Below are positions 36,924 through 62,576 of a stretch of DNA of 64,000 nt, one piece after another. Origin of the DNA: Candidatus Spechtbacteria bacterium. Lineage in GTDB: Bacteria > Patescibacteriota > Minisyncoccia > Spechtbacterales > JACPHP01. Both the position numbers and the translations under genes were made by a program. The stretch spans positions 18,833 to 82,832 of the forward strand of contig JACPHP010000015.1 of NCBI GenBank assembly GCA_016188605.1, written 5' to 3'. Below the pieces are notes generated by a model, which was given only the letters and a program-made list of their open reading frames with translations, had not been told where the DNA came from and ran no database searches. Within the stretch, counting starts at the first letter, position 1. Each line of letters opens with the position of its first letter.

Positions 36924-36979
36924 TTTTAGTCTCCCGATCGGGAGACCTTGATCACCTCCTTTCTCTAGGCAGAGACGGA

Positions 36980-37810
36980 CTACCACGTCCCTGCCAAATC
37001 CCTATCCTCCCACGTCGCCGCCTCAACCCCAGAGGCGTCGGTGGCGACGTGATAGTAGTGGGACTTTGGCCCACCGTACAGCCGCCCGCTGTACGTGGTG
37101 CGGAACACCGCGCCGGCGGACATGAGCACGGCGAACTGTTCGCCGCTACCCATATTGCCGGCATCGCCCTGGGCGATCCGGCCGCGGGCCAATATCTGGC
37201 CCGGGAACGGCAGGAACGTGGGATTCGCCGGGGTGCTGGGCAACACTCCGGCGTCGGGGTGGGCATACGTCGAGGGCCCACCCCATATAGCCCCCTTAGT
37301 GGAGGTCACCAAAGTGACATCCACACCGCAGGCCGCGCAGTCCGCGGCCTCGTCCTCCGTGTAATACCCGTCGGCATCCTTGTGCCGCCGGGTGCCGTAG
37401 TTATTGGCAACCTGCCCTCGGCTAGGGCAGGAAACCTCACCGCGATCGCCTGTGTGGCTATTGCCGCCCCGGTACCCAATCGGGGTCGGCAGAACCACGA
37501 TGACCGCGTCCTCGCTCAGCGAGGCGCGGTCATCGACCGCGATCAGCTTCGGCGCGCCATTGCGCGTCGTGCCGATCCTCGCGGCCATGAGCCGCGAGGC
37601 CAGCACAGTCCCGCGATCGGCGGAGTGCGCCACGCGCGTGCCACCATCCGCCCGAGCGGAGGTGACAAACGCTTCCCCACACCGCGGGCACGTGCCCAAC
37701 GGCGTGGGGATTGCGGTGATACTGCCCCGGTCTGGGCAGGGCCGCATCGGGACGTTCTCCACGGCCAGAAGGCCGAGAGTGCGCCCCCGACCCGCTTCGC
37801 CAACGGCCAC
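36980..37810 (-). CDS. Foreign-looking high-G+C ORF (hypothetical; CPRCG zinc-ribbon-like motif), possibly frameshifted
   Basis: 276-aa ORF in a ~1-kb block of ~65-70% G+C. A second overlapping frame (37968-37543) reads like an N-terminus (MYRIFTAAGGKVVAGG...), suggesting a frameshift or pseudogene. The opposite-strand ORF is Arg-rich antisense noise. Confidence 0.35.
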   Translation of the reverse strand: MAVGEAGRGRTLGLLAVENVPMRPCPDRGSITAIPTPLGTCPRCGEAFVTSARADGGTRVAHSADRGTVLASRLMAARIGTTRNGAPKLIAVDDRASLSEDAVIVVLPTPIGYRGGNSHTGDRGEVSCPSRGQVANNYGTRRHKDADGYYTEDEAADCAACGVDVTLVTSTKGAIWGGPSTYAHPDAGVLPSTPANPTFLPFPGQILARGRIAQGDAGNMGSGEQFAVLMSAGAVFRTTYSGRLYGGPKSHYYHVATDASGVEAATWEDRDLAGTW

Positions 37811-38348
37811 GACTGGGGGATAGTCGTGCCATTGGCAAGCCGGTGCGCCGTGATGGCGCCGCCGGCCACGACCTTACCGCCCGCGGCGGTAAAAATACGA
37901 TACATGACTTGCCCCTTTCCTGCGAAGCCCAGCGCTTCTGCCGGCTCCGCCTCCCCCTCGCGTCCCATGACGCTAGTGAAATTTAAATTTAAAAATATAT
38001 GAATCTAAAAGCCCGACACACCAAGTGTCGGGCTTTGTCTGCATTATCCCGCAAGACAGGGGCTAGGCGTTTATTCAACCCACCGATGACTAAGCCCGTC
38101 TGTGGAAAAATACAGTTCTTTACAATCTCGTGAAGCCCACGAGCTATTGTAGCTACTCTGGTAATAGCCAATTTATGCCACAGTCCAGAATGAACCGTTG
38201 TCGAGGGGAAATCTATGATCATCCTAGTGGCCATAGAGTTTAACCACTACCACCCTATGGGCATAGTGAGAGAACCCGACTGTTCGTTCTAGATCACACC
38301 AACTGTCTGCCTGCGCTGTATGGGTGAGGCCTTAATCCGACTGAAAAA

Positions 38349-45162: not shown

Positions 45163-45201
<39 letters not shown>

Positions 45202-46427: not shown

Positions 46428-47111
46428 CTATCCGTTAATATCTTTTTTAATCCCTTCCAAAATTTCGCGGGCTACTCCCTGGCCACCGAGGCCGAAGGCT
46501 AATCCGCTCGCCAAGGCAAGCATGGCAACAATGCCCATAAACAACGTGTTGACCATGGCTGTTGCAACGCCAAGCTGGTTTAATGCGGCTAGAATACCAA
46601 ATGCCCACACAGCCCAACGCGTCACCAAGCCCACAAAACGAGATGAGCCACCAAGTTCAGTTGCCTGTAATGCTGTGCGTGTAGCTTTCTCTAAGAAATC
46701 ACCGAGAATTGCCGCCACCACAATTACGAGAGCCGCGACTACTATATTAGGAATATAGAGCACTATTTGCTGCAAAAATGTTGCGACAGCAGTTAACCCC
46801 ATAATCTCTACCGCGGCCATAAAGAACGCGATGACGAAAAACCATTTCACCAGCATGCCGAGTAAAGAACTTATTTCAATCGTCATGCCTGCGCGATGAA
46901 GCATTTGCGTTACAGAAAGCTGGCTCATAAATTTATCCAGCTGCGCCATTTGCAAAAGGCGCGTTACAACCATACCAAAAGCGACCGCAATAATCCAACC
47001 TACAATAAATACAATGATTGCCCCGAGAAAACTCGGAACGAATTGCATAAAACCTTGCCAAATTTGCTGCAAGGATACAACTACTACTTCACTCCATTGT
47101 TGTACTAACAT
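46428..47111 (-). CDS. Membrane protein with repeated conserved TM helices (MscS-N-terminal-like 'TM helix' repeats)
   Basis: 227 aa, four-plus TM segments with repeated AxxLG-rich pattern. Family assignment tentative. Confidence 0.4.
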   Translation of the reverse strand: MLVQQWSEVVVVSLQQIWQGFMQFVPSFLGAIIVFIVGWIIAVAFGMVVTRLLQMAQLDKFMSQLSVTQMLHRAGMTIEISSLLGMLVKWFFVIAFFMAAVEIMGLTAVATFLQQIVLYIPNIVVAALVIVVAAILGDFLEKATRTALQATELGGSSRFVGLVTRWAVWAFGILAALNQLGVATAMVNTLFMGIVAMLALASGLAFGLGGQGVAREILEGIKKDING

Positions 47112-47251
47112 AATGTATATTTTAAAGAGAATAAATCTCAGTTAATTTTATTAATTATTTGAATATCGACGTTAGGTAAAAAGTACAAGACCTTTCTAAT
47201 AACATTATAGCAGTAATTCAGCAGAATTTAATATAGCTCTGTGGATAACTA

Positions 47252-47292
47252 TGGCAGAGGAGTTGCCGCGCTAGCGCGGCAACTCCTCTGCC
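47252..47292. terminator. Perfect 17-bp-stem hairpin ggcagaggagttgccgcg-cta-gcgcggcaactcctctgcc
   Basis: Direct reading, between the two minus-strand membrane-protein genes. Confidence 0.55.
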
Positions 47293-47301
47293 ATCAATTA
47301 T

Positions 47302-47808
47302 TTACGATAATCGTTTAACTGATGTATACTCGAGAACTGATTGCACTAACCACGCAAACGTAATCGCAATTACAATGCTACCGATAATATCAACCCCGTG
47401 GTGCACGCCAACGTAAATTCGTGAAAAACCTACTATAATTGTCAACGCCCATAGCGCAATGCTAACTTTTTTATTAAACGGCCAAAGGGCAGCTGCAATC
47501 GCAGCGCTAATCAGTGTGTGATCGGAGGGAAAACCATTATCCGCCACATGCGCAATAAGCGGAGTGAAGCCATCAGTTACGAACGGCCGCGGGTAATAAA
47601 AGAAAAATCCCAAGATTTTTGCCGCGAGATAGGTCAACGGCAAAGCCAGCACAGCAAAAACAATCATCCGCTTTTGCACGTCACGCTTTTGCAACATAAG
47701 ATATGCTAACGCGATACCAATAATGGCAATAAAAAGATACTTAGCAGATAAAATAAAGAATAGAGAAGCTATGTCCATAATATTGAAGTTCACGACCCAT
47801 ATTAGCAC
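47302..47808 (-). CDS. PAP2-family phosphatase (undecaprenyl-diphosphatase-like)
   Basis: YPRPF ... FPSDH ... SRIYVGVHHGVD signature triad of PAP2 acid phosphatases. Confidence 0.7.
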   Translation of the reverse strand: MLIWVVNFNIMDIASLFFILSAKYLFIAIIGIALAYLMLQKRDVQKRMIVFAVLALPLTYLAAKILGFFFYYPRPFVTDGFTPLIAHVADNGFPSDHTLISAAIAAALWPFNKKVSIALWALTIIVGFSRIYVGVHHGVDIIGSIVIAITFAWLVQSVLEYTSVKRLS

Positions 47809-48278: not shown

Positions 48279-48313
48279 TTTCAGCCTGAGGCTGATCCGC
48301 CTCTGGCGGAAAA
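48279..48313. repeat. Twin-hairpin G+C-rich repeat (cagcc-tgag-gctg / ccgcc-tct-ggcgg), copy at the tRNA side of the foreign cassette
   Basis: ttcagcctgaggctgatccgcctctggcggaaaa. Inverted near-identical copy at 56162-56196. Related copies at 8281-8315, 56010-56030 and 56390-56415. Confidence 0.65.
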
Positions 48314-48711: not shown

Positions 48712-48739
48712 TTGACTTATAGTTTAATCGTTTTATAAT
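48712..48739 (+). promoter_or_regulatory. Near-consensus sigma70 promoter (TTGACT, 16 nt, TATAAT) for the 48822 gene
   Basis: Direct reading, followed by a leader with AAAGGAGGT SD 5 nt before GTG. Confidence 0.6.
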
Positions 48740-48821
48740 CACGACACTCTCTTGAACTGCACAGAAATGCAAACGAGAAGCTGTATTTTCACAAATTATA
48801 ACAATCGAAAGGAGGTATCTG

Positions 48822-50645
48822 GTGCTAACATCATTAGTTCCAGTCGAGTCATTACTCGACCCCGTTCTTGCTGCCGCAGTATGGCCTGAAAGTATTACAA
48901 GCAATGAAGTTTTCAAACAACAGCTTGAACGGCGCAGGGAGCTGATAAAACGCCTCGAAGACGTCATTTGCTCTCTGCCCCGGCCAGATATGCCTATCGG
49001 GACAGCTATTGATCTGGGGTATATCACCGAGGAACAAGTTGCGGCACTCTATGAATCTCTAAGCGATTTGCTGCAAGACCCGTACTACAAGCGCATTGTC
49101 TTCTATCTTCCATTTGAATTCTTGCCCAACAGAACGTGGGACCATTTCGGGGAAAAACTCCGACAGGTCGCTAGACTATTTAGGCAGGTATACATGGATG
49201 CTTGGTGGCATCTGCTTCTAGTGCAAGACGTACGCGCCAATTTCGTAGATGGCGACGTGCTTGAAGTAGGGCAGAGAGTCGGCGACTTGCCGCGAGTAGT
49301 GAAGGCGGCTCATCTCATACCCAAGCTCGTTGAAAACGGCTTGCTAGAGATTGAGGACGTCATATCTCTCATGGAAAAAGCCAACGATCAGGTGCTGAAA
49401 GATAGCATTGCCGATGCGCTCCCCGTTCTAGCAGATATGGGATTTATTCCAGATACAGAAGCTGACACAGAATCAGCTGAAGCAACACCAAAGCCGATTA
49501 CGCTTACATATGTTCGCAAAAAATTGGATAAAGCGTTCTCTAGAATAGATACTGAAGATTTCGGCAGTATCACGAAGGGTCGAAAAAATTGGCTTGTACA
49601 AAAAAAGAGGCAAGAAGCCATCGATGCCGCTGGAGAAGATATATGCACAGCAATCGTTCGAGGAGAGCTCTCTAATGAAATAACGGCGAGCTTTCTCGCT
49701 TACGGAGATTCTGCTATGCAGCGAGTGCTTGTCGAAGGAATTAGAGCGGCCATTGAGTCCGTCGCGCTAACTAACGTTAGCAGGGCGCACGCACTGTACG
49801 CTCAGTATAAAGAAACTTTGCTAGCACTTTGGGAGAGCGACGATCCTGATATCGGGGAAGCGCTATCCAAAACTTTCCGCCGGCTCCATTACCTCGGTAT
49901 TGTTGATGACCAACGGCTGTCGGAGTTAGGAATAGTCATTCCACGTCTCGCAGGACCTTTCTCTAAAAATCTTAGGTCAATGGGAAAGGACTTGCGCGAT
50001 ATAGAAACGATGGCCGCGTCTATCAAATGCAACAGCGAGCTGTCGCGGCTCATATACCCGGGGGTTCTCATGTACGGCTCGCGCATCAAGGGATACGGCG
50101 CGCAAAATTCTGATATTGACCTTGCCGTATTTGTGAGGCCGGGAACGCCTTTTGCTGGCAGGTCGGAGCTACAAAAACTACTTGGACAAACTTTCGCGCA
50201 TAATGCGATTCGCGGCCAAGTTGTTGAATTCTGGCTGGAAGAAAAGGGCGAGATACTTCGAATTCGTGACTTCAATAGTTCTGATGTATATCTGGGAGAA
50301 AGCTATTGGACACATGTCCTGTTTGGCGCCGTATGGATGGGCGGCGATGATACAATACGTGAGTTGTATGAAAAACTGCTGACTCCATATATGCGCGATG
50401 ACGGTAATATAATTTTTGGCCGCGGCGCAATAAGCATCTACTTGGAGGAAACAGAACGAGACACTCTACAGTACAGGTTGATGCATAAAGGATATGAACG
50501 ATTCTTCCCGCCATGCGGCGGCATACACACACCCCATTCAGATAGAATTAATGATAGTAGCATGTTCTGGGATTCGGGATACAGGCAACTTGCAACAATG
50601 CTGTTTGTAAGCAGAGTTTTTCTGCCGAATATCCCAGTTGTATAA
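48822..50645 (+). CDS. Large protein with C-terminal pol-beta-type nucleotidyltransferase domain (GS...DID minimal NTase core)
   Basis: 607 aa. LMYGSRIKGYGAQNSDIDLAVFV fits hG[GS]x9-13Dh[DE]h. ~400-aa helical N-terminal region of unknown type. Strong SD, GTG start. Confidence 0.5.
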   Translation: MLTSLVPVESLLDPVLAAAVWPESITSNEVFKQQLERRRELIKRLEDVICSLPRPDMPIGTAIDLGYITEEQVAALYESLSDLLQDPYYKRIVFYLPFEFLPNRTWDHFGEKLRQVARLFRQVYMDAWWHLLLVQDVRANFVDGDVLEVGQRVGDLPRVVKAAHLIPKLVENGLLEIEDVISLMEKANDQVLKDSIADALPVLADMGFIPDTEADTESAEATPKPITLTYVRKKLDKAFSRIDTEDFGSITKGRKNWLVQKKRQEAIDAAGEDICTAIVRGELSNEITASFLAYGDSAMQRVLVEGIRAAIESVALTNVSRAHALYAQYKETLLALWESDDPDIGEALSKTFRRLHYLGIVDDQRLSELGIVIPRLAGPFSKNLRSMGKDLRDIETMAASIKCNSELSRLIYPGVLMYGSRIKGYGAQNSDIDLAVFVRPGTPFAGRSELQKLLGQTFAHNAIRGQVVEFWLEEKGEILRIRDFNSSDVYLGESYWTHVLFGAVWMGGDDTIRELYEKLLTPYMRDDGNIIFGRGAISIYLEETERDTLQYRLMHKGYERFFPPCGGIHTPHSDRINDSSMFWDSGYRQLATMLFVSRVFLPNIPVV

Positions 50646-50746: not shown

Positions 50747-51892
50747 TTAGTTACCGCTACGGCGGTGTTCAGTGCCAATACCGGTAAGCCGTTTACTTGC
50801 AGACGCGCTGGCGCTGAGCTGGTCCCAGGGAATCTGGGAGCCAAGCATGTACAGCGCGCCAAAGTACTGCAATTCTTCATTGCCGGCTGGCTGATCCTTG
50901 ACCCGCATGACCGCCAACACGAATCGAGTCAGGTTGGTCTCCAGCCGCGGATACGTGGCAGAAACCGCTACACCGAGCTGTCGAATCATCTGGTCACGGT
51001 TAGCGGCACCGATCAACGCTGGCAGACGGGTATTTTCCAGGGTTTCTTTGATCTTGGATGCGTCATAAGCGAGCGCAGCCGCGATCTGAACTCCCGTTCC
51101 CGCAAAAACCTTGTTTACAGAATCGGCCATTGCATCTGCTGCGTCACGCAGCCCGCCTGTATCCGGCGGCTGCATCATGCCCGAAGGCATAGCGCCACCA
51201 CCGCCGACCATCGCCATCATGGCATTCATCATAAGAGCAGGATTTGCTGCGCCCTGCACCCACGCATCCTGCCAGGATTTAAGCTGTCCATAGAAAGTCG
51301 TAATCGCTGGCCAAAGATGCTCATCAATGCGCTGAAAAAGCTGCTTCTTTCGCGCTTCAGTCACATACGAACCATCCAAACCGTCGATCGCCGCAAAGAT
51401 CTCAGCATAGCTGCGTCGCGTCATTTCCTTTCGAAGCTTAAAAAACTCCGGATCAACCTGCTCTTCGTTCGTATCCGCAAATCTCTCCATCAAGCCAGCG
51501 AGCACATCCGGGATACTGAAGAGGCCTGCCCGGTATGCCAGTGCCGCCCGAACTGCCGAAATAACAGTGGATTGATCAACCTTGAGGATTCCACCAGTTC
51601 GAAGCGCTTCCAGCCAAGAAGCATCGGTGGGCACTGCGGGAAGCACAGCATCAAAAGAAATGGCTCCCATTGTACTTACTGCGGGCGGCTCAGCCACTGG
51701 CTTAGCCGGTGCAAGCGCTTTGAGCAAATTCCTTGCCGGCAATACTTTCATGCCGACTCCGACGAGGTCTTGCTCTGTCAAACCAGCCAGATCTTCCACG
51801 GTCGTAGCACCAAGATCAGAAATAATCTTCTCAATCACTTCAGATGCAACGCCCATAGACTCAAGTTTGGCAGTTACTTCAGTGACTTCCAT
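50747..51892 (-). CDS. Hypothetical protein with N-terminal tandem helix-hairpin-helix-like segment
   Basis: GVASEVIEKIISDLGATTVEDLAGLTEQDLVGVGMKVLPARNLLKAL. SD AAAGGGG 8 nt upstream of ATG. Confidence 0.4.
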   Translation of the reverse strand: MEVTEVTAKLESMGVASEVIEKIISDLGATTVEDLAGLTEQDLVGVGMKVLPARNLLKALAPAKPVAEPPAVSTMGAISFDAVLPAVPTDASWLEALRTGGILKVDQSTVISAVRAALAYRAGLFSIPDVLAGLMERFADTNEEQVDPEFFKLRKEMTRRSYAEIFAAIDGLDGSYVTEARKKQLFQRIDEHLWPAITTFYGQLKSWQDAWVQGAANPALMMNAMMAMVGGGGAMPSGMMQPPDTGGLRDAADAMADSVNKVFAGTGVQIAAALAYDASKIKETLENTRLPALIGAANRDQMIRQLGVAVSATYPRLETNLTRFVLAVMRVKDQPAGNEELQYFGALYMLGSQIPWDQLSASASASKRLTGIGTEHRRSGN

Positions 51893-51914
51893 TTTCTTTA
51901 CCCCTTTCGCGGTT

Positions 51915-53300
51915 CTACCTGCACATCTTATCCCGCTCGGTACTTCCCAGCGAGATCATTCTAACTTGCACTCCCAGCTTTTCTCCAATTATACTGGCAC
52001 AAAACGAGTAAAGCTCGCTTGGTGTGGCGGGCGATGGAACTTTCAGGGTCGTAATTTCCGGCTTGCAGCGCGAAAGCTGTTTGCCGAGCGATTCCTGATA
52101 TTCCAACTGATTGTTATCCGTTCCCACACGGACTTTGATTGCGCCCGTGGGCGTAAAATATGTAGGATCGTCCGCGCCGAGATAACGGTCGCATATACGC
52201 CACTCTCCGTTAGCCACAATTTGATCGAACCATGTGACGGCCAGGCCATTGAATGCATTTGGGCCGCCGCAAACTTCTATAGCGTAACGAAGTAAAACGA
52301 GATCCAGCGCCCCTACGCGCACTTCTCCCTGATAGCGGTTGCTTTCTTTGTGACTGCCTGGAAGCAATCTTTCTGCCATCTCGGGATTGGCAGTAGGCAT
52401 CGGACCCGCACCGTGGCGAATTGCGTATGCTCGGAACACTCCGAAATTCACAATCTCTCCGTCGTAGCCAGCATCTATAAGCATCGCTTGCGTAAAGCAC
52501 GGCAATGTTCGAATGGCGCTTACGTGCGGATAGAAACCGTGAAAGTGATCGGTGATAACTCCGTGCGAGCTTTCAACTACAACCACACCGTCCCGAGCAA
52601 GGACTTCTCGCTCAAGATATTCATGGCCGACAATCTTAGCTCGCCGCGATACTTCTTCAAACCGTTCGGCAATATAGTCGAGGAAGCCGTCATCATAAAG
52701 AAGAGCAACTTCCTTTTGCATCGCCTCACGGTCGCTAGGCAAGAACTCGCCGCCAATAGTCTCGTTGAGATCGCTGCGTATTTGCTCTCGCACGCAAACA
52801 AGCAAATCTTTCAGATCGGGCCGCGACAAATCGCAGGCTCGAATCGTAAGATCCGGATACTGTTGCAAATAGCGATACGCTTCACCAACGCCTGTGCCAA
52901 TCGTGCCGCGAGGATTATTACCACGTGACATTTCTTTCAGGCGCGACGCAATTCCGTGATAAGGCGTGGCGCACAATGCCATTTCATCTACCGTCAGCAG
53001 ACCAAACGGATTGTGTATGCCGTGCTGATATCGAAGTGCGTCAGACTCATTAAGTAAACCTTCTGGAGAAACGATAAACCGAGCGGAGATATGCGTGTTA
53101 ATGCCTTCGAATGTGCCGCATCCCCACTGGCTGAAAGCAAAGCTCTCGCCACGCGAAGTGCGGACACCGTGGCTTCCCTGCGCGCCTCCGACTTTCACGA
53201 CGGTGTGGGCACGCATCATTGTTGCGATTTTGTGCACCACACCGCCCTTGCCGCCGTCACCAGGACCGAGGTCGGTGACGGTGTAGACTTTCTTGGTCAT
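51915..53300 (-). CDS. Divergent adenylosuccinate-synthetase (PurA)-like enzyme
   Basis: P-loop GPGDGGKGGVVHK (PurA GDEGKGK); VKVGGAQGSHGV (PurA GGHNAGHT); NPRGTIGTGVGEAY (PurA TTGRGIGPAY); ESSHGVITDHFHGFYPHVSA (PurA [21 protein letters not shown]); HGAGPMPT (PurA RVGAGPFPT). The aspartate-binding TTGRRRRTGW loop is replaced by SNRYQGEVRVG. ATG at 53300 with GAGGAAGGTGG SD. Confidence 0.6.
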   Translation of the reverse strand: MTKKVYTVTDLGPGDGGKGGVVHKIATMMRAHTVVKVGGAQGSHGVRTSRGESFAFSQWGCGTFEGINTHISARFIVSPEGLLNESDALRYQHGIHNPFGLLTVDEMALCATPYHGIASRLKEMSRGNNPRGTIGTGVGEAYRYLQQYPDLTIRACDLSRPDLKDLLVCVREQIRSDLNETIGGEFLPSDREAMQKEVALLYDDGFLDYIAERFEEVSRRAKIVGHEYLEREVLARDGVVVVESSHGVITDHFHGFYPHVSAIRTLPCFTQAMLIDAGYDGEIVNFGVFRAYAIRHGAGPMPTANPEMAERLLPGSHKESNRYQGEVRVGALDLVLLRYAIEVCGGPNAFNGLAVTWFDQIVANGEWRICDRYLGADDPTYFTPTGAIKVRVGTDNNQLEYQESLGKQLSRCKPEITTLKVPSPATPSELYSFCASIIGEKLGVQVRMISLGSTERDKMCR

Positions 53301-53310
53301 CGTCGCCACC

Positions 53311-53350
53311 TTCCTCGGTACGCCGAAGTCTCGCTTGGCGAGACTTCGGC
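53311..53350. promoter_or_regulatory. Perfect 17-bp-stem palindrome ggtacgccgaagtctcgc-ttgg-cgagacttcggcgtacc inside the cassette operon, abutting the PurA-like SD
   Basis: Direct reading. No T-run, so more likely a processing/stability or attenuator element than a terminator. Confidence 0.4.
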
Positions 53351-53379: not shown

Positions 53380-54537
53380 CTAGAGCCAGTTGGGTCCGTC
53401 GTCGGAGTCCTCGTCTTCGGAATCTCCAGAAGTAGCCGAATCAATTTCACTAGGATCGACCGGCCAGAGGTCGGTCTTTTCCCTGAAAAGATCGCCGGCC
53501 TTCGGAAGCTTATCGAAGTTCGGAGAAAGCATCTGAGCTCCGAGAGGAATATGCGCAACTGCGTGAATAATCTGACGCGCACTGAATTCTGAAACATTAT
53601 GCTCCGTAAGAAATTCCAAAGCAGACCCCAGGCTCAGCACGCCCTCCATGAGACCGATGATTATTGCCTTTACACAGTGCAGGTTGTTCGTACCTTCAGG
53701 AAGCATAACGAAATGACCAGCTCCATACAAATCGCTCCACTGATCTGCAACATCCCGACGATTTCCAACCTGCAAAAAGAAGGCATGCGCCTTGGTCTGT
53801 AGATCCCTGACTACTTGCGCGGTGTTAGGCAGTTTTCCATTACTGAAGTCATAACCATTTTCTTTGGCATGCTCCAGTACGTCATCTCCGTAAATCTTCT
53901 TCAGCCAACGCGGATCGATAGTTTCAACGATCGGCTCGTCAGAGATCGTGAAGTGATAGTACTTCAAGCCCCATCGGTTAATCGCTGCATTAGTCAAGTA
54001 CACAGCGCCGAAAAGACCGAACTGTGGATCTTCCTTGCCGTTACCTTGACCCCTACGGCCAGGCACTAAATGAGTCATCTGGGAAGCAATTTTCTCGTCC
54101 ATCTCAAATTGAGTACGACATAGCACAGGCACGTCTTCTCCATCTTCAACGTCGTTGAATATGGCAGTTGCAATCTGAACGTCATATCGACCTAAAATAG
54201 GACGACTGCCGCTGGTCAGCATCTCGTAAGAACTAGGCAAGACATCAAATGCTGTATCTACGTTGCCCCCCATAGAACCGGTTGTATCTAGCAAATCTTC
54301 TTCAGCCATAGGAATACCGCAAGTCAGGACCCATAAGTTACCGCGCTTCTCAAAACGCGGCAGAGATCGACGAATGGGCCCGAGATGAGCAGGTCCTTTC
54401 GGATCCACCAGCGGATCTAGACCTTGTCCTTGGTGCATTCGCTCTTCAGCACCGCTGGTAGCTTTCTTGGTTCCATTAGACGTAGCGCTATAACGAACTC
54501 CGGTATAACCAGACCTTGAAAATGTATTCTTCCCCAT
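53380..54537 (-). CDS. Hypothetical protein with vWA-like (MIDAS DxTxS) segment and acidic C-terminal tail
   Basis: LLDTTGSMGG MIDAS-like motif. C-terminal SGDSEDEDSDDGPNWL. SD AAAGGGG upstream. Confidence 0.4.
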   Translation of the reverse strand: MGKNTFSRSGYTGVRYSATSNGTKKATSGAEERMHQGQGLDPLVDPKGPAHLGPIRRSLPRFEKRGNLWVLTCGIPMAEEDLLDTTGSMGGNVDTAFDVLPSSYEMLTSGSRPILGRYDVQIATAIFNDVEDGEDVPVLCRTQFEMDEKIASQMTHLVPGRRGQGNGKEDPQFGLFGAVYLTNAAINRWGLKYYHFTISDEPIVETIDPRWLKKIYGDDVLEHAKENGYDFSNGKLPNTAQVVRDLQTKAHAFFLQVGNRRDVADQWSDLYGAGHFVMLPEGTNNLHCVKAIIIGLMEGVLSLGSALEFLTEHNVSEFSARQIIHAVAHIPLGAQMLSPNFDKLPKAGDLFREKTDLWPVDPSEIDSATSGDSEDEDSDDGPNWL

Positions 54538-54567
54538 ATTATTCGCCCCTTTCTTTGCTATACACGC

Positions 54568-55380: not shown

Positions 55381-55391
55381 CGAATTTCCCT

Positions 55392-55668
55392 CCTTTCGTA
55401 CTTGTATTGTAAAGGGACACAATAAACTAGTGCTGATAGTATTGTGTATAACCTGTCTTGTCAAGAGCGGCGTAAGTAACCCCTCACACCCCTCGTGAGT
55501 CATTGCGAGCCCCAAGGGGGCGTGGCCCGCCAGCAACGCCTTAAGCGTAGCTTTGGCGGGCTGGCAATCCCGCTCGTATGTGGTAACGAGATTGCTTCAC
55601 GCTACGCTCGCAATGACGTATAATAAGATTTTGATATAGGGGGTGTGGGGGGTTACCATAGCGACGCA
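55392..55668 (-). promoter_or_regulatory. Structured ~280-nt 5' leader of the cassette operon (candidate cis-regulatory RNA)
   Basis: 12-nt perfect inverted repeat GTCATTGCGAGC ... GCTCGCAATGAC enclosing ~100 nt of nested G+C-rich stems (agcgtagc/gctacgct, cccgcc/ggcggg). No match to a riboswitch class I can name. Confidence 0.35.
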
Positions 55669-55678
55669 TTATATGGCA

Positions 55679-55706
55679 TGATTCCTAATGCTCAATATAT
55701 TTTAAA
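55679..55706 (-). promoter_or_regulatory. sigma70-like promoter (TTGAGC, 16 nt, TATAAT) reading into the cassette operon
   Basis: Direct reading on the minus strand. Confidence 0.5.
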
Positions 55707-55796
55707 AGAACTTTATTTAAGATTAGCAAATGGTGATAATAGTGTCAATAGTACACTATTAACAGGTTAAAATTTTATGAATTATTTATGCGGTTT

Positions 55797-55838
55797 TGAA
55801 TTTCACTTATCATACACGGCCGTGTATGATAAGTGAAA
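55797..55838. terminator. Perfect 20-bp-arm palindrome atttcacttatcatacacgg-ccgtgtatgataagtgaaat
   Basis: One of a run of hairpins (also 55920-55945 and 55960-56000) downstream of the 16S 3' end. Confidence 0.5.
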
Positions 55839-56161
55839 TTCAAAATGTTAACAAAATAATCCACCTATGATAAAGCAGAGGCAATAAGTATCACAAACAA
55901 AACAAACTAGTTCTTCGGGGACGGCAGAAATGCCGTCCCTTTTTCATACAATGCAAAACCCTCTGCCTTAGGCAGAGGGTTTTGCATAACTGACAGAATC
56001 ATTGCGTAAAGAAAATTTCTTATCCGCCTCAGGCGGAACATTGAACATCTAAGAGTTGCTCCAAATTGGTAACTCTTTTCTTGCGAAAAGAGATTTTAGT
56101 CTCAGACATTTGAAGGCTTTGAGACTAACGCCTTGCCTACCTTTAGCTAATCATACAGAAG

Positions 56162-56196
56162 CTTTTCCGCCAAAGGCGGATCAGCCTCCGGCTGAA
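56162..56196. repeat. Twin-hairpin G+C-rich repeat, inverted copy at the 16S side of the foreign cassette
   Basis: Reverse complement reads ttcagccggaggctgatccgcctttggcggaaaagc. 33/35 match to 48279-48313. Confidence 0.65.
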
Positions 56197-56344
56197 GCGA
56201 AGGCGGGCAGATATTAAAGCACGAATTCGATGCTTCAATATCGTCGACTCCCGATATTGTATCAAGCAAAAGCTTAATAAAAAATCAAGAAAAAATGATC
56301 CATCCACAGCTTCCGCTACGGATGCCTTGTTCATGTTTACCTGT

Positions 56345-56790
56345 ACTTTTCAATACAGCACGGACTATATCTTCATCCTTTTGTTTTGTAACAATCCGCC
56401 TGAGGCGGACAAAAAGGAGCCAACGTGTAGTCTCTACGGGGTTAATGTGTGCTAAATGATGGGGGCGAGAGAACGCGCTCTCTCGCCTTGATGAAAGAAA
56501 TAAAATGCATTCGTGCTCTTTGTGCGGGCGATTTTTCGGCTTGGGTATGCATCCCCGCGCCGATATAACGTGCGCGGCCACGCTCACTAGCACTTTGCGC
56601 ACAAGTTACACAGAACTACTTCATTCTCCCATCATTCAGCACACATAACTTCCCTCGGTATTGCCTTCATTCCTTTATTATACAACGAATGTCACATAAT
56701 AAAGAGGAGGGTTTCACCGATACAGTTAGATTTTGCAATTGCCTTGCGGCAAAAGGTCGCAACGACCAGAATGGTCTGACGACTTCGTCC
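56345..56790 (-). mobile_element. ORF-less group I intron at the 16S ~S1506 site (between GAAGTCGT and AACAAGG)
   Basis: Exon comparison with E. coli 16S. S-element GATGAAGATATAGTCCGTG at 56384-56365. Confidence 0.55.
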
Positions 56791-56869
56791 TTGTCACTGA
56801 TCTTACCGTGGGCCCACTTACGTGAGACTTCGGGTACTACCAGCTTCACTGACGTGACGGGCGGTATCG

Positions 56870-57893
56870 GGATCAATGAGCATATCATCGTCCCACGCCA
56901 CCGGACGAACGGTTTTACCGTATCCTGGCGGCTTCCATCGAATGCTTCTTGCCAAGAAAACGCATCTGTTCACGCAATCGCACCATTTCGCTGAAACCCT
57001 TATCTGTAAGGTGTTCTTTATTGCGATACATAGTGACAATTCTCTTAAACAGTATGTATGTTTTTGCTTTCTTTGCTTGAAGATGATTTGCATCTAAAAA
57101 TGGAAAAAGATACGCTACCAAATCTTTTGAACTGGTAATTTTATACTTCGCGTGGGGGTACCATCCGTACCTCTCATACGAGCAATCATATATTTTCCCA
57201 CAACCAATTGTCACAAGAATTCGTTCGAGGATTTCACGATCATCTGCGCGGAGTTCGATTTCAAACTCGGCACGTATTTCGACAGAGCGAGGATGTTTAT
57301 AATCTCGTTCTTTTCGTTTTCCAACGCTTACCGCAAACGATCCTTCACCATCAATGAATCCTGCGACATATTGAGGAGGCAATTTTTTTCGATGAATTCG
57401 CTCCTTTCCAATCGGACCCTTCAAAGATAAATTTCTTTGGAAAGGTTTACGACTGGTACTACGAGCTCTGCTGACTTCTTGCATGGAATAAATAAAAATT
57501 ACTTTCTATCCTTCTATAATCCCAAGGTTATTTTACCGTGGAAATTAATACCAAACAAGATCTCCCCCGGTCATCTATAAAACAATTTGAAAACATCTCG
57601 ATCACCCTATACGTAGCAATAAATATACACAAAGTGACTTCCCCATGTACTCGAAGGGTGGTCTTATTACTACGCCTCAACAGTGATTCAAGCTATCTTC
57701 TGCTACCCTCGATTGTAGTTGTAACTATAATCGAGACCAAGTTTAACTTGATTTCGCCCTTCATCCTGGGGGTCACCCCTCGCAGGACTGCGATTTTGCT
57801 TCAAAGCGCTTTGTTCGCTTCGGTTGGACTTCTCACCAACAATAAAGTGGAAAGTCACCAACTCGTTCCATAAACTGCAGGGCACCCGAGTAC
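56870..57893 (-). mobile_element. Intron in 16S at ~S1391-1396 (after CTTGTAC) carrying a LAGLIDADG ORF
   Basis: Exon discontinuity CTTGTAC | ~1 kb | ACCGCCCGTCAC. No canonical S-element seen, so intron subclass is uncertain. Confidence 0.5.
56915..57484 (-). CDS. LAGLIDADG homing endonuclease (single-motif)
   Basis: YVAGFIDGEGSF motif. 189 aa. Confidence 0.8.
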   Translation of the reverse strand: MQEVSRARSTSRKPFQRNLSLKGPIGKERIHRKKLPPQYVAGFIDGEGSFAVSVGKRKERDYKHPRSVEIRAEFEIELRADDREILERILVTIGCGKIYDCSYERYGWYPHAKYKITSSKDLVAYLFPFLDANHLQAKKAKTYILFKRIVTMYRNKEHLTDKGFSEMVRLREQMRFLGKKHSMEAARIR

Positions 57894-58357
57894 AAGACTC
57901 GGGAACGTATTCACCGCGCCATAGCTGATGCGCGATTACTAGCGATTCCGGCTTCATGAGGTCGAGTTGCAGACCTCAATCCGAACTGGGGCTAATTTTG
58001 ATGGGATTTGCTCCGCCTTACGGCTTGGCGTCCCTCTGTAATTAGCCATTGTATCATGCGTGTTGCCCAGGGCATCAAAGGGTCATGCTGATTTGGCGTC
58101 ATCCCCACCTTCCTCCCCGTTATGCGGGGCAGTATCGTGTGACACATATAACACACAATAGGGGTTGCGTTTGTTACCGGACTTAACCGAGCGCCTCACG
58201 GCACAAACTGACGACAACCATGCAACACCTGCCCAATTGTCCTTGTGAGACATTCTCCCTTTCGGGAGAACTTCAACTGGGTGTCAAGCCCTGGTGAGGT
58301 TCCTCGTTTGTCATCGAATTGAACCGCATGATCCACCGCTTGTGCGAGTCCCCGTCT

Positions 58358-58389
<32 letters not shown>

Positions 58390-58796
58390 ACCCAGGCGGA
58401 ATACTTAACGCGTTAGCTTCGCCACGTGTAGGGTCGACACTACACACAGCTAGTATTCATCGTTTACAGCGTGGAATACTGGGGTATCTAATCCCATTCT
58501 CTCCCCACGCTTTCGTCCCTCAGCGTCAGAGTCATGCCAGCTGATTGCCTTCGCCTTTGGTGTTCCCCATGATATCAACGGATTTCACTCCTACACCATG
58601 AGTTCCATCAGCCTCTCATGCTCTCTAGTTTTGACGTTTCCTGCGCAGATTCAAGGTTAAGCCCTGAAATTTAACACTGGACTATCAAAACCGCCTACGG
58701 ACGCTTTACGCCCAATAATTCCGGATAACGCTCGGGGCCCTCGTATTACCGCCGCTGCTGGCACGAGGTTAGCGGCCCCTTATTCCTGAAGTACAA

Positions 58797-58940
58797 TCAA
58801 ACCGCTCCTCGCTACGCTCGGAGCACACCGATAAACGCAGATACGAACACGGATATACGCGGATATAATAATCCGTGTAAATCCATTTTCTTATCCGTGT
58901 GAATCCGTGTACGTTCCGAACGCAGTGAGGAACGGTCTTT
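58797..58940 (-). repeat. IVS-like insertion (family-A-related) in the 16S ~450-480 variable loop
   Basis: ~140 nt absent from E. coli 16S between ...CTGAAGTAC and GAAAAGCAGTTTACAACCCGAAGG. Shares cgaacacggatatac / ccgtgt words and a ccgaacgcagtgaggaac end with the 23S copies. Confidence 0.6.
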
Positions 58941-59284
58941 TTCCTTCAGAAAAGCAGTTTACAACCCGAAGGCCTTCATCCTGCACGCGGCGTCGCTCGG
59001 TCAGGCTTTCGCCCATTGCCGAAGATTCTCGACTGCAGCCTCCCGTAGGAGTAGGGCCCGTGTCTCAGTGCCCTTGTTGGGGGTCGTGCTCTCACACCCC
59101 CTACCCGTCATAGCCTTGGTGGGCCATTACCTCACCAACTAGCTGATAGGCCACAGGCCATTCCAGTACCACCTGAGTTTTACTTGCTCTTGCGAGCAAG
59201 ACCATCAAGTATTAGCTCCGATTTCTCGGAGTTATTCTTGAGTACTGGGTATGTTCCTATGTATTACTAACCCGTTCGCCACTA

Positions 59285-59400
59285 TCCTACGCTCCGCGCT
59301 ACGCGCGGAGCTACGGAATAGCAAGCTCTCCCATATTTTGAGCGCCTGCGATTCCGAAGCTCCTCACGCAGTGAGGAGCGAAGGATCGTTCGACTTGCAT
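59285..59400 (-). repeat. Structured insertion, family-B-related, in the 16S 5' domain (V1 region)
   Basis: cgctccgcgctacgcgcggagctacggaatagcaagctc...gcgattccgaagctcctcacgcagtgaggagcgaaggatcg. Confidence 0.5.
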
Positions 59401-59408
59401 GCCTTATC

Positions 59409-59440
<32 letters not shown>

Positions 59441-59940
59441 GAACTCTTAAAATAAACGAAGTTTATTTTAAGCCCATCCGAAGTTCCGACGAAGTCGGAA
59501 CGCAGGAGGGCCATACAAAACTTCGTTAAATACCAATTTGAAACAACTCTTGAATGTTCAACGTAAAGTTGCAGAGCAACCACGTTGCAAGCAACATAAA
59601 GGGCTCTACGCCCCACGTTGCAAGCAATAATTGTTTTTGTTTCTCGCACATTTGTATATTTGAGGGTGTTGCTCCTCGCCTATACGTTGCCCCCTTCGGG
59701 GGACTTGGCTCTAAAATGTTACGTAGAAATATAAATAAATATACTTCTACGTTTAATAATAATTACAACGTAAAGTTGCGTGGCAACTCCGTAAAGAGGG
59801 CGTGGCCCTCCACGGAGGGTTTTACGCCCCACGTTGCTTTACGCAAGAAAATGTAATTATTATTAAAGCTGATTCTGTTCAGTTGTTAATGTTCATCCGA
59901 AATATTTTCTATTAAATACAATACTTTCGGATACGTAGAC

Positions 59941-60132: not shown

Positions 60133-60360
60133 CTAGAAAAAAACACATTCGCTATAATGTCCGCTTCGGCAACGATCGCTTTCCTCGACTCGTAATTTCC
60201 TACGAGATCCCCCGACACCTCTATCATGCATGGTTAGGCCTAGTATAATCGTATTATCATTGACTTCTGGAAACTCTTCCCGCAAACAAGATTCGCATCT
60301 TCTTAACAGCCTATATGGCGTTGATCCTGACAAGCACACTTTGCATTGATAATTAGACAT
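60133..60360 (-). CDS. Hypothetical small Cys-rich (zinc-ribbon-like) protein
   Basis: CKVCLSG...RRCESC. Overlaps the upstream small ORF by 8 nt. Confidence 0.3.
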   Translation of the reverse strand: MSNYQCKVCLSGSTPYRLLRRCESCLREEFPEVNDNTIILGLTMHDRGVGGSRRKLRVEESDRCRSGHYSECVFF

Positions 60361-60613
60361 TCAGTACCTCCTTTAGAAAACAGTCCTCCGACAATCCAAT
60401 CTCTCTTGCTAGAATACGGCCAACTTCTTGGCGACGCTGTTCAGGCCATTTTGGCGTTGCGTCAAAGGAAAGTTGCGCGGCCATTTTTGCCAATGCCACG
60501 TGCTCCGGATTAGCGCAGACAGTAAAATTGCTTTCGACCGTAGAATCTTCACCGCAATAACGACATGCCAGATACATGCTCATTGCACATCCTCCTTTTT
60601 CTTCCTTCTTCAA
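60353..60613 (-). CDS. Hypothetical small protein (CRYCGED motif)
   Basis: 86-aa ORF, translationally coupled to 60133-60360. Confidence 0.3.
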   Translation of the reverse strand: MKKEEKGGCAMSMYLACRYCGEDSTVESNFTVCANPEHVALAKMAAQLSFDATPKWPEQRRQEVGRILAREIGLSEDCFLKEVLNV

Positions 60614-60627
60614 CCTGTCCCTACATT

Positions 60628-61647
60628 TTAGAATAGAAGATATGGCCGCACAATATCCATATTATTCTGTGCCCACCACACTCCTCCACCGACACACAGC
60701 GCGACAAGAAGACCAATGAATGCATACCCGATTGCGCTATCAACCGGGATTTCAAATGGCTTCTCGATAAGATATAGCACGAAGAATGTACCACCAATCC
60801 CGAGCAGCTGCGGCACTCCGAATACAGAACCAACCGCTATCGCCGCAAAGCCCAATAAAATAGTCGTCACCTGCATAATGGGATACGTCCTTGCGTTACC
60901 ATACCACCTGCTTGAAGCAATCAGAAGCCCCAAGTATCCAACAAAGCTACCCATCCAAAGTGCTCCCTGTTCAAAAACTTGCATGTAAGGAATAGTCGTC
61001 CTTAGCACATGGAGCCCCACGAATACGCCTAGCACCATGAATGCGGCAGTAGTCGCCTTTGCAACAGCATCCTCATCTTCAAAGCCAAGTGCATACATGC
61101 CCGGCGCTATTAAAACAGAGAAGCCGAGCATTCCCATAAAAGCCGCGACGGCAATAAAGCCTACCACCTCGTTCTGATAATACAGCGCAACTGCGCTCCA
61201 TACAAGAAAAAGGATTCCGAAAAACCGATCTGGCTTGTTGAATTGCACCGGATGAAGAGCCGCCGTTATGGTAAGCGCCACTCCGAAAAGAAGAGAACCG
61301 CCCAAGACCGGCCAGAGCTGATTTATTGCAGAGACCCAGTGTCCAGAGACAACGAGTCCAATGCTTGCGATGTAGAGCAGAACCTCGTATACCTCTTCGG
61401 GCACGTGCAAAAATATCTCAATAAGCCATCTGAACCATCGCGAGATCAAGTATCCAAAACAAATAACGGCGAGGGCAATTGCGAAAACCTGAAGGATATT
61501 CATCCATGTAACAAATCCCGCTGCTATCTGAAGCCCCGTGAGCTCTACGCAATCAGTACTTGGACCGCCTGCCAATACAGCCGTTGCGGGATAGAATGCT
61601 GATAGCCCCACCGCGCTAAGCAAAGTAAGAAGCAAAGAACGAAGCAC
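60628..61647 (-). CDS. Hypothetical polytopic membrane protein (~10 TM)
   Basis: Hydrophobic helices throughout. No motif recognised. Confidence 0.5.
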   Translation of the reverse strand: MLRSLLLTLLSAVGLSAFYPATAVLAGGPSTDCVELTGLQIAAGFVTWMNILQVFAIALAVICFGYLISRWFRWLIEIFLHVPEEVYEVLLYIASIGLVVSGHWVSAINQLWPVLGGSLLFGVALTITAALHPVQFNKPDRFFGILFLVWSAVALYYQNEVVGFIAVAAFMGMLGFSVLIAPGMYALGFEDEDAVAKATTAAFMVLGVFVGLHVLRTTIPYMQVFEQGALWMGSFVGYLGLLIASSRWYGNARTYPIMQVTTILLGFAAIAVGSVFGVPQLLGIGGTFFVLYLIEKPFEIPVDSAIGYAFIGLLVALCVGGGVWWAQNNMDIVRPYLLF

Positions 61648-61786
61648 GACTGCCCTCCTTATTGTTAAATACCAACGCCTACCTTAAGGCGTCTAGTGAA
61701 CAAAATATACCGTTTACACTAGCTAGTCAAATCAACTGAAATACCTAATAATAATGCGGACGAATTATCGTCCGCATTTTGTGACT

Positions 61787-62104
61787 TTACGCAAACATCA
61801 CTCCGCCCATTCCCCAGAAAACTCCTTTTGAGATTTCTTCTTCTCGGACAAGAACCCAGTCTGCTAAAAGCATTTCGTCTGAAATATCTGGCACATCTCT
61901 ATAAGCCTCAAGGATGATTTTACGTTCATCTTCAGACATGCCCATCAAAGTGAGAGCTTCCTCTGAAAGATGACCCATAGCATTATAGGCATCGCGCTCG
62001 TCTTCAAGAAGAAAACCTCTGGCCTCTTCTTCAGAATCAGCAAAAATTATTTTGCAATCTCCTTGCCGATATTGGCCACGTGTTTCGAACAGATATATTT
62101 TCAC
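61787..62104 (-). CDS. Hypothetical small acidic protein
   Basis: 105 aa, Glu/Asp-rich. Confidence 0.35.
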   Translation of the reverse strand: MKIYLFETRGQYRQGDCKIIFADSEEEARGFLLEDERDAYNAMGHLSEEALTLMGMSEDERKIILEAYRDVPDISDEMLLADWVLVREEEISKGVFWGMGGVMFA

Positions 62105-62180
62105 AGCCCACCTCCTGAATAAACATATATCACCTTTTACAGACAGTGTAAATAAAAAGCGCTCGCCGAAACGAGCGCTT

Positions 62181-62576
62181 TTATATTCTTTCTTCCGCGA
62201 AGAATGGAGTTTTGGAAATTGTGTACACCACGCGCTTTATGCCAACGATCTTCAACAACTCCATACAATCTTCGCAGGGCTTGGCTAGGGCAGGCGTGCC
62301 GTTTTTGAATTCGCGCCACACCCAAACCGTAGCTCCCTTCATTACGCTCAAATCAGCCTGCTTTATCGCATGCACCTCCGCGTGACGATACCAAACCGAC
62401 TTACGCCTTCCAGGAACTGAAATCGTTGAGGTCCCCATGCGATTGCAAGCAATACTCAATACGCTATTACCTTTTGTAATGACAGCTCCGACGCGAATAC
62501 GCCGCGGAAATGAATCCGCATTTCGAGCTTCTGCCCGAGCTAGCTGAAGCGGATAAGCCTGAAGCGAAATCTGCAA
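62181..62576 (-). CDS. dCMP/cytidine-type zinc-dependent deaminase (ComEB-like)
   Basis: RVGAVITKGNSVLSIACN ... HAEVHAI ... PCEDCMELLKIVGIKRVVY (H-A-E and PCxxC zinc ligands). Confidence 0.6.
   Translation of the reverse strand: MQISLQAYPLQLARAEARNADSFPRRIRVGAVITKGNSVLSIACNRMGTSTISVPGRRKSVWYRHAEVHAIKQADLSVMKGATVWVWREFKNGTPALAKPCEDCMELLKIVGIKRVVYTISKTPFFAEERI

Follow-up and report, generated by a model that had tools for sequence, protein, structure and literature searches.

Shine-Dalgarno-led gene blocks beside the rRNA genes of a Candidatus Spechtbacteria contig whose 16S rRNA lacks the anti-Shine-Dalgarno sequence

Introduction

The anti-Shine-Dalgarno (anti-SD) sequence at the 3' end of 16S rRNA is recurrently lost in reduced genomes (PMC7782861), and the anti-SD motif (CCTCCT) was detected in only 48% of Parcubacteria, according to the survey by Tsurumaki et al. 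(2022, RNA 28:1041, PMC9297842). Here we analyse a 64,000-nt stretch of DNA (contig JACPHP010000015.1, positions 18,833–82,832), called the window below and providing all coordinates, from a genome whose proteins assign it to Candidatus Spechtbacteria, in the Parcubacteria of the Candidate Phyla Radiation (CPR). Its single visible 16S rRNA has no anti-SD and its host genes start almost without exception without Shine-Dalgarno (SD) motifs, whereas three discrete blocks adjoining the rRNA genes are led by strong SDs.

The Parcubacteria of Tsurumaki et al. resemble this case in that CCUCCU is absent, the rest of the 3' domain is conserved and the rRNA genes carry insertions. In its available part, that paper covers presence or absence of the motif; a replacement tail, upstream SD use and SD-led islands are not described there, and Spechtbacteria are not named in the main text. 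Reduced and symbiotic genomes (Lim 2012; Amin 2018; Nikolaeva 2020, PMC7782861) have likewise lost CCUCC, translate independently of SDs and are small, but these are mostly insect endosymbionts and Tenericutes, whereas here a free-standing groundwater CPR lineage is gaining genes. In Bacteroidia (PMC13000457), core genes also lack SDs, upstream regions are A/U-rich and starts are chosen by other mRNA features; their anti-SD, however, is present but sequestered. Here it has been deleted or replaced, and therefore conditional use would not be possible. Finally, genomic islands, which are known by atypical signals such as GC and codon use, share with the blocks described here their discreteness, their own promoters, their position beside rRNA or tRNA genes and their patchy distribution across phyla, as well as deviant GC in two of our three blocks. 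They differ in that the clearest marker here is initiation grammar and not composition, and in that no mobility genes were found here.

Results

The 16S rRNA ends without an anti-SD

The RecA and MscS-like proteins of the window are 100% identical to proteins of a Candidatus Spechtbacteria metagenome-assembled genome (MAG; NCBI, HYV65_ locus tags), and their nearest homologues come from Spechtbacteria or Parcubacteria, which supports membership in the Parcubacteria. The source is a groundwater bacterium with a genome of about 45% GC, and all of the sequence lies in one gap-free contig. The 16S rRNA gene is laid out as follows:

59969–59941, minus strand: 16S promoter, TTGACA-17-TAATAT, sigma70-like
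59531..59564, minus strand: pre-16S leader arm, pairing with the trailer arm
59454 down to ~56288, minus strand: 16S rRNA gene, split near its 3' end
57888..59454, minus strand: 16S exon 1 (Rfam SSU_rRNA_bacteria, RF00177, 1301 bits)
56866..57887, minus strand: intervening sequence of 1,022 nt, between the equivalents of positions 1397 and 1398
56779..56865, minus strand: 16S exon 2, helix 44 region, about E. coli 1398–1498, ACCGCCCGTCACG...GAAGTCGT
56332..56778, minus strand: group-I-like intron of 447 nt, after U1498; U is the last nucleotide of the 5' exon and G that of the intron
56288..56331, minus strand: 16S 3' exon, E. coli positions 1499–1534 with helix 45, then the replacement tail
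56038..56071, minus strand: pre-16S trailer arm, pairing with the leader arm and upstream of the cassette described below

Read on the minus strand from 56331 to 56288, the 3' exon is AACAAGGCATCCGTAGCGGAAGCTGTGGATGGATCATTTTTTCT, which can be written AACAAGGCATCCGTAGCGGAAGCTGTGGATGGATCA TTTTTTCT. Helix 45 with its GGAA loop is intact (56324–56301, minus strand), and it is followed in the spliced 16S by GAUCAUUUUUUCU instead of GAUCACCUCCUUA: the replacement tail UUUUUUCU fills 56295–56288, the eight positions at which E. coli has CCUCCUUA. The roughly 10 nt past GGAUCA contain no CCUCC, the tail being UUUUUUCUUG. This reading confirms what an earlier note, made from the sequence of this stretch alone, had reported about the tail and helix 45. 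CCTCC was not found on the rRNA strand of the internal transcribed spacer (ITS) from 56295 down to 55400, nor did the 64-kb window contain a second helix 45 or, by Rfam, a second small-subunit (SSU) rRNA gene. Over the 39 nt that end in GGATCATTT, the sequence is exactly that of other CPR 16S ends, with identity up to GGATCA. In Logan contigs (k=31), our source of independent assembly evidence, contig L164 stops at 56302, inside helix 45, and the tail itself is seen in one assembly.

The leader and trailer arms constitute inverted repeat I2 (34 nt, 85% complementary), which cofolds into a predicted long stem enclosing the pre-16S, and about 50 nt past the 16S end lies a GTCGA ITS motif that also occurs in both anti-SD-bearing and anti-SD-less CPR. 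Because the trailer arm and the GTCGA motif come before the cassette, the tail lies inside native pre-rRNA, and the cassette therefore did not separate the 16S from an anti-SD. The 16S of this host lineage has lost its anti-SD. In a consensus scan, helix 45 together with GAUCAUUUUUU (56288–56324) appeared terminator-like; the U-rich tail that took the place of the anti-SD might also serve a stand-alone 16S unit as a weak terminator.

Host genes and island genes differ in their start signals

We compared 26 host genes, including every gene named in the earlier note, with the ten genes of two islands. SD strength was taken as the duplex free energy (dG) of the 22 nt before the start against ACCUCCUUU, with an SD called at dG ≤ −7 kcal/mol and random 22-mers of the window as background. 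Mean dG was −0.38 kcal/mol for host genes (n = 26) versus −2.34 for the random 22-mers, and all 26 host genes start with ATG. A+T makes up 77% of the sequence before their starts (A 37, C 12, G 11, T 40%), with T at −1 in 70% of genes. An SD precedes 1/26 host genes versus 10/10 island genes (Fisher p = 4e-8), and non-ATG starts occur in 0/26 versus 5/10 (p = 7e-4). The ten island genes range from −7.3 to −13.4 kcal/mol with spacers of 4–8 nt, a range that also takes in the spacer of a GC-rich open reading frame (ORF) in a third block. Each of the genes sampled in the earlier note lacks an SD. The note's observation is correct and statistically solid, and its view that this ribosome would be unable to form the canonical SD–anti-SD helix and that host genes do not use SDs is supported.

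The sole exception on the host side is a holin-like gene (dG −8.5, SD-like tract ctgAAAGGAGttctATG at 4587). This gene (4554–4937) encodes a Phage_holin_4_2 family membrane protein, and its upstream ATG at 4554 has no SD.

In about ten host genes, among them recA, ftsK-like, rpoC, rpsF, hyp278 and hyp268, the best sigma70-like −10 box ends 4–13 nt before the ATG, as judged by consensus matches. Three metagenome loci show the same proximity: L152 and L148, both with an anti-SD-less tail, and L140, with the tail TCTCC. Because of this spacing, host mRNAs are probably leaderless or very short-leadered. Leaderless translation in Actinobacteria, Deinococcus and archaea shares with many host genes the strict use of ATG and a −10 box near the start; here, in contrast, the case is built on consensus matches in about ten genes. 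Compensatory pairing between host leaders and the tail was also considered and rejected, since dG comparison revealed no excess pairing of host leaders to the actual U-rich tail.

The split between core and accessory genes recurs in a relative, the Spechtbacteria-like contig L170, whose RecA is 84% identical. In this relative and in a groundwater contig (L171), no SD precedes the core genes rpoC, recA, rpsR, ssb, rpsF, serS and adk, and AGGAG-type motifs stand before small genes that are hypothetical or accessory.

A TdeIII-type restriction-modification pair (15468–17864, GC 0.35–0.38) lies right after recA, has no SD and is absent from the syntenic region of L170; it looks acquired.

A conserved five-gene cassette lies between 16S and tRNA-Ile

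The first island is a cassette of five genes with the following features:

55464–55436, minus strand: promoter of cassette gene 1, TTGACA-17-TACTAT, ending 55 nt upstream of the start
55385–55397, minus strand: SD of cassette gene 1, GAAAGGAGGGAAA
54568..55380, minus strand: cassette gene 1, kinase-like, 270 aa, GTG start (phrog_3043 kinase, 1.5e-11)
53380..54537, minus strand: cassette gene 2, von Willebrand factor A (vWA)/integrin-beta-I-like fold, 385 aa; SD AAAGAAAGGGG at 54546–54556
51915..53300, minus strand: cassette gene 3, divergent adenylosuccinate-synthetase (AdSS) family, 461 aa; SD GAGGAAGG at 53309–53316
50747..51892, minus strand: cassette gene 4, 381 aa; SD GAAAGGGG at 51901–51908
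48822..50645, plus strand: cassette gene 5, nucleotidyltransferase (NTase)-like, 607 aa, GTG start; SD GAAAGGAGG at 48807–48815
48712–48739, plus strand: promoter of cassette gene 5, TTGACT-16-TATAAT, 82 nt upstream of the start

All five genes have GAAAGGAGG, GAAAGGGG or GAGGAAGG 4–8 nt before the start, with dG from −7.3 to −13.2 kcal/mol (mean −10.0), and two of the five start with a codon other than ATG; the strong SDs that the earlier note had located before each of them are therefore real. The gene 2 protein has a conserved DxTGS motif resembling a metal-ion-dependent adhesion site (MIDAS), an AlphaFold model with pLDDT 84, and Foldseek matches to integrin beta and von Willebrand factor A domains (E ~1e-6 to 1e-7). 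Gene 3 matches Pfam PF00709 (8.5e-37) and AdSS structures in the PDB, gene 4 found no family match in Pfam, and gene 5 has weak Polbeta/NTP_transf_2 matches below the Pfam cut-offs. As the sigma70-like promoters sit 55 and 82 nt upstream of the starts, long cassette 5' untranslated regions (UTRs) are implied, which speaks against the leaderless initiation once suggested for these genes; leaderless or short leaders fit the host genes instead. Cassette GC is 0.48–0.54 versus a host range of 0.35–0.50.

Homologues of the vWA-fold protein, at 50–72% identity, occur in Moran-, Davies-, Falkow- and Uhrbacteria records and others. The same five-gene order was found in a Moranbacteria MAG (L162), an 842-kb contig from the Joint Genome Institute (JGI; L163) and the groundwater contig L171; a homologue carried by the last of these appears in a Falkowbacteria record too. 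In these three loci the neighbours are unrelated, most module genes lie above the GC of their flanks, codirectional module genes carry SDs and many flanking genes are AT-led without one. The NTase homologues have no SD in L162 and L163 and have one in L171. From gene order and homology the cassette is a conserved five-gene CPR module, and its unrelated settings show it to be mobile. This recurrence in distant genomes and differing contexts is a result for island 1, the block compared. L171, with its SD-poor core genes and a cassette homologue shared with a Falkowbacteria record, resembles the Bacteroidia state (PMC13000457), the Falkowbacteria 16S ends listed in the GTDB survey below keeping CCUCC.

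Logan contigs carrying the cassette are 100% identical across at least six samples and end at tRNA-Ile (48547) and at 55551, in a dispersed palindromic repeat. One Logan contig (L161, sample SRR12113390) has a different 59-nt junction past 55576, upstream of cassette gene 1, which suggests a second genomic context of the cassette or a strain variant.

Several repeats lie around the cassette. The dispersed palindromic repeat, with a GGGCGTGGCCC core and CATTGCGAG...CTCGCAATG arms, occurs at 55476–55658, 59590–59625 and 59790–59840, and k=31 Logan contigs break at its copies (55551, 59817). The spacer between 16S and cassette holds a perfect loopless palindrome of 26+26 nt, TTTTGAATTTCACTTATCATACACGG|CCGTGTATGATAAGTGAAATTCAAAA (55794–55845), for which Rfam returned spurious miRNA matches only. 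A two-hairpin module (CAGCC-N4-GGCTG + TCCGCC-N4-GGCGGA) flanks the cassette in inverted orientation (48280–48313 and 56163–56196, 94% complementary), and CCGCC-N4-GGCGG-like hairpins recur at 56017–56037 and in the group-I-like intron (56395–56415).

A second island and a GC-rich block carry the same motifs

The earlier note had named the five cassette genes as SD-led; island 2 (60133–62576) and the ORF at 36980–37905 had been missed:

60133..62576, minus strand: island 2, five SD-led genes between trmD and the 16S promoter, directly following trmD
62181–62576, minus strand: island 2 deaminase (dCMP-deaminase-like), TTG start
61787–62104, minus strand: island 2 hyp105, GTG start, motif AGGAGG
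60628–61647, minus strand: island 2 hyp339, GTG start
60353–60583, minus strand: island 2 hyp76
60133–60360, minus strand: island 2 hyp75
36965..37975, minus strand: third SD-led block, a 67% GC segment between 5S and a host gene, with one ORF
36948..36962, minus strand: perfect but orphan SD, AAAGGAGGTGATCAA, not followed by a start codon; it lies in the 3' UTR of the GC-rich ORF

In island 2, (A)AGGAGG stands 5–6 nt before each start, mean dG is −12.3 kcal/mol and three of the five starts are non-ATG. In Logan contig L154, which is 100% identical and stops in the 16S leader repeat, this island is continuous with trmD, a KH-domain gene and rpsP; because the contig links the island independently to host genes, island 2 is not a chimera.

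The GC-rich ORF runs from an ATG at 37905 to a stop at 36980, is split over two reading frames, and has the SD AGGAAAGGGG at 37912–37921, 6 nt before the ATG; no Pfam or PHROG match was found for it. The 67% GC segment could be a pseudogene, foreign DNA of very recent arrival or a fault of the assembly. At its edge, the orphan site reads on the minus strand as a perfect extended SD, AAAGGAGGTGATC, and the plus strand at 36950–36964 is GATCACCTCCTTTCT, which reproduces 15 nt of the canonical 16S 3' end exactly. Beside it lie a hairpin (36930–36947) and a bidirectional terminator (36903–36924), and the 36948–36964 element probably represents an orphan SD bordering the GC-rich block. Repeats near the islands consist of hairpin modules and partial tRNA-Ala copies, which do not bracket the islands, and PADLOC gave no convincing defence-system match.

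Other lineages also lack the anti-SD

The comparison of related 16S 3' ends proposed in the earlier note was carried out in two surveys. In GTDB (one genome per species, helix 45 pattern, figures from the matches listed), at least 118 16S ends have this helix 45, and all those listed carry CCTCC except one with TCTCC. Among the listed matches the nearest 16S is at most about 80% identical, and Falkow-, Uhr- and Magasanikbacteria ends carry CCUCC; SD-using carriers of the cassette therefore plausibly exist. The second survey, of JGI metagenomes, required this helix 45 together with a nucleotide other than C at position 1535 and gave 19 loci. Twelve read TCTCCTTT. The other seven have no CCUCC at all, and their U-rich tails fall into three types, TTTAATTTATT, TTTCACTACT and TTTCTATTTTTG; the TTTCTATTTTTG locus also carries an insertion ending in ..AATG at the intron site. 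Five of the seven had enough 16S to compare and are 76–81% identical to the window 16S, so the trait is shared by several deep lineages. No 16S ends of relatives were recovered through synteny of the MscS-like gene, synteny being not conserved or contigs too short. Parcubacteria without anti-SD overlap the group lacking uL1 (PMC9297842). In the window, the gene upstream of rpoB encodes a TPR protein.

Insertions and neighbours in the rRNA locus

Both 16S exon joins agree with intron-free CPR 16S genes: spliced join 1, GTACTC|ACCGCCCGTCA, is the sequence of a Falkowbacteria locus (L026), and join 2, GAAGTCGT|AACAAGG (GAAGTCGT|AACAAGGCATCC), is that of relatives. With the insertions removed, helix 44, helix 45 and the decoding centre are intact, and with its processing stem present the 16S otherwise looks functional. 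The 447-nt intron satisfies the U/G boundary rule and an exact exon join, and its match to Rfam RF00028, at 35.1 bits with E = 2e-6, falls short of the gathering score of 50; an insertion ending in ..AATG occupies the same site in metagenome locus L148. The 1,022-nt insertion contains a LAGLIDADG endonuclease ORF (56915–57484; Pfam PF00961, E = 7.5e-18); its ends are not group-I-like, and it has no group I signature and does not follow the U/G boundary rule. Contig L164 matches window 57960–56302 at 100% and covers this insertion. Its termini, CGGG.. and ..CCCG, are able to pair, and two relatives (L108 and L152) have 16S insertions a few nucleotides from its site.

After the 16S, the rRNA locus continues in this order:

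48591–48519, minus strand: tRNA-Ile
48200–48127, minus strand: tRNA-Ala
45770–39731, minus strand: 23S, interrupted
38525–38414, minus strand: 5S, last in the locus

The 23S is broken into at least two Rfam segments (39058–45770), with a group I intron at 39875–40311 and three ORFs (39058–39537, 40694–41344 and 42032–42901); LAGLIDADG-like motifs are present in translations of at least the first two. Between tRNA-Ala and 23S (46428–47808) lie genes for an MscS-like protein (227 aa) and a PAP2 phosphatase (158–168 aa by start choice); the MscS-like gene is not beside rRNA genes in relatives L131–L133. tRNA-Ala is partially duplicated: its 5' 28 nt recur at 48404–48377 (96%) and its 3' 49 nt at 48048–48000 (100%), 9 nt of flank included. 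These partial copies look like att-type duplications left by insertions.

Discussion

How did SD-led genes come to lie beside a 16S gene without an anti-SD? The explanation that we favour, with a probability of about 0.68, is an anti-SD-less host that holds horizontally circulating SD-led accessory DNA. In this reading the host lineage starts translation without SD pairing, on AT-rich, G-poor upstream regions with ATG, and its SD-led genes are confined to discrete accessory blocks adjoining the rRNA genes. The GGAGG-type motifs, which stand at ideal spacing before every SD-led gene, and the GTG or TTG starts of half of the ten genes are the initiation grammar of SD-using bacteria; these signals most likely evolved in anti-SD-bearing genomes and were then carried in unchanged. 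Such DNA would circulate among CPR, many of which have CCUCC, bringing its own promoters, long leaders, SDs and GTG/TTG starts. Since the canonical helix is impossible in this host, the island genes, if translated at all, would have to start independently of SDs, for instance by loading on a purine/A-rich leader free of structure or by re-initiation of 70S ribosomes inside the operon; weak A-U and G-U pairs with the U-rich tail may at most be of some help. The proposal that the fragment-prone ends of this unusual ribosome could serve the cassette found no support.

The earlier note had the cassette arrive recently from an SD-using donor. Its foreign look, the conserved module in unrelated contexts and the CCUCC-bearing candidate donors agree with such a donor; "recently" goes beyond this evidence, the nearest vWA-fold homologue being only 72% identical and no cassette-less variant of the strain having been seen. 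Several observations weigh against the acquisition of circulating DNA that we favour. The island SD motifs are at least as strong as those of the homologous modules, and the NTase gene has a perfect SD here, which is unfit for long neutral decay; undegraded motifs therefore fit recent arrival or continued selection, two possibilities that are inseparable. Island 2, with a host-like GC of 0.42–0.49, bears no foreign mark in its composition, and neither island 1 nor island 2 is bounded by an integrase, a transposase or a clear target-site duplication. The junction between 16S ITS and cassette (55551–56302) is covered by no independent contig. Searches with three island proteins, one per block and including a 25-sequence profile, found no close homologues in viral contigs; for the vWA-fold protein the plasmid search gave no match, and phage records gave a weak partial match (25% coverage, Rhizobium jumbo phages). 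On these searches, with three island proteins against viral contigs and the vWA-fold protein against plasmids and phage records, a phage or plasmid origin of the islands was rejected. In L170, SD-like motifs precede ftsK and several small genes; because ftsK has such a tract, the lineage history of SD use is not simple and needs whole genomes.

Could the purine tracts work in this host even so? SD-like tracts might function without an anti-SD, through A-U and G-U pairs with the tail or through a protein reader, with two initiation modes in the cell and selection maintaining the motifs. Island leaders do pair with GAUCAUUUUUUCU(UG) at −2.4 to −7.4 kcal/mol, compared with −2.1 for the host mean and −2.7 for background (Mann-Whitney p = 1e-4), all island ORFs are intact with conserved lengths, the motifs are undegraded down to an NTase SD that two homologues do not have, and the core/accessory split recurs in L170 and L171. 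However, the sole visible 16S has no complement to these motifs, the predicted pairing of island leaders with its tail is weak and wobble-rich, and host leaders are not enriched for it. The U-rich tail sequence is not conserved in other anti-SD-less lineages (UUUAAUUUAUU, UUUCACUACU, UUUCUAUUUUUG), and the same motifs stand on the module in other CPR contigs, so that inheritance suffices without a new mechanism; we consider functional tracts unlikely. Distinctly unlikely, in our judgement, is a full two-tier system, in which core genes are leaderless or AT-led and accessory purine leaders function on anti-SD-less ribosomes by tail pairing or an anti-SD-independent reader; if true, SD-like motifs would be selected even where their canonical partner is gone. 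Nor is an assembly artefact, in which SD-led blocks of another organism were joined through rRNA or tRNA sequence or repeats, at all probable. The blocks adjoin 16S, tRNA-Ile and 5S, classic sites of mis-joining, Logan cassette contigs stop at tRNA-Ile (48547) and the repeat at 55551 with L161 diverging past 55576, and the 67% GC ORF has a frameshift and is extremely unusual in a genome of 45% GC. Yet host sequence stands to either side of each block within a gap-free contig, which would require double mis-joins; the Logan breaks fall at repeats that occur within the window contig itself, an independent k=31 assembly joins island 2 to trmD, the KH-domain gene and rpsP, and the cassette contigs, identical in at least six samples, have counterparts in ordinary CPR chromosomal contexts elsewhere.

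Two further accounts look for a missing anti-SD. CPR genomes usually carry a single rRNA operon. Another 16S copy or anti-SD source outside the window could supply a minority of canonical ribosomes that read the SD-led genes: the window shows 64 kb of the genome, and the exact 15-nt canonical 16S end GATCACCTCCTTTCT stands at 36950–36964 on the plus strand. The window has one SSU gene and one helix 45, however, and the 15-mer has no helix 45 or other 16S sequence alongside, lies behind a plus-strand terminator and, for a minus-strand ORF that ends in a better minus-strand terminator, amounts to an SD within the 3' UTR. We rejected it as a second or trans-acting anti-SD on these grounds, and hold the account as a whole to be highly improbable. 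Alternatively, the cassette could have inserted between position 1534 and CCUCC, leaving ACCTCCTTTCG at 48812–48802 (minus strand) as the original tail. Minus strand 48815–48802 is ATACCTCCTTTCGA, close to ATCACCTCCTTTCT, the site lies about 210 nt before tRNA-Ile, a typical distance, and the L162 and L163 NTase homologues have no SD. Against this displacement, the U-rich tail is followed by native ITS, with the GTCGA motif and the trailer arm, partner of the 16S leader; tails of a similar kind occur in unrelated anti-SD-less lineages that have no cassette; the L171 NTase homologue has an SD; and the motif, which agrees with the CGAAAGGAGG SD of cassette gene 1, is part of a 5' UTR that follows a strong plus-strand promoter. 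The sequence at 48812–48802 is the complement of a plus-strand cassette gene SD, and with the native context of the tail a displaced anti-SD is effectively refuted.

On present evidence, horizontal acquisition, not a new mechanism, best accounts for the contrast between host and island genes. Anti-SD loss itself was already published for a Parcubacteria subgroup (PMC9297842), which the earlier note had missed; what is new is the contrast with SD-led islands only, and this contrast stands. The locus amounts to a natural experiment, in which intact, well-spaced SDs and GTG/TTG starts occur in a cell whose only visible 16S cannot pair with them, and expression data from the population would reveal what an SD contributes without its partner. 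In SD-less CPR genomes, SD grammar is a sharper marker of genes that are accessory or imported than GC content is: all three blocks of this window stood out by it, including one whose GC is host-like.

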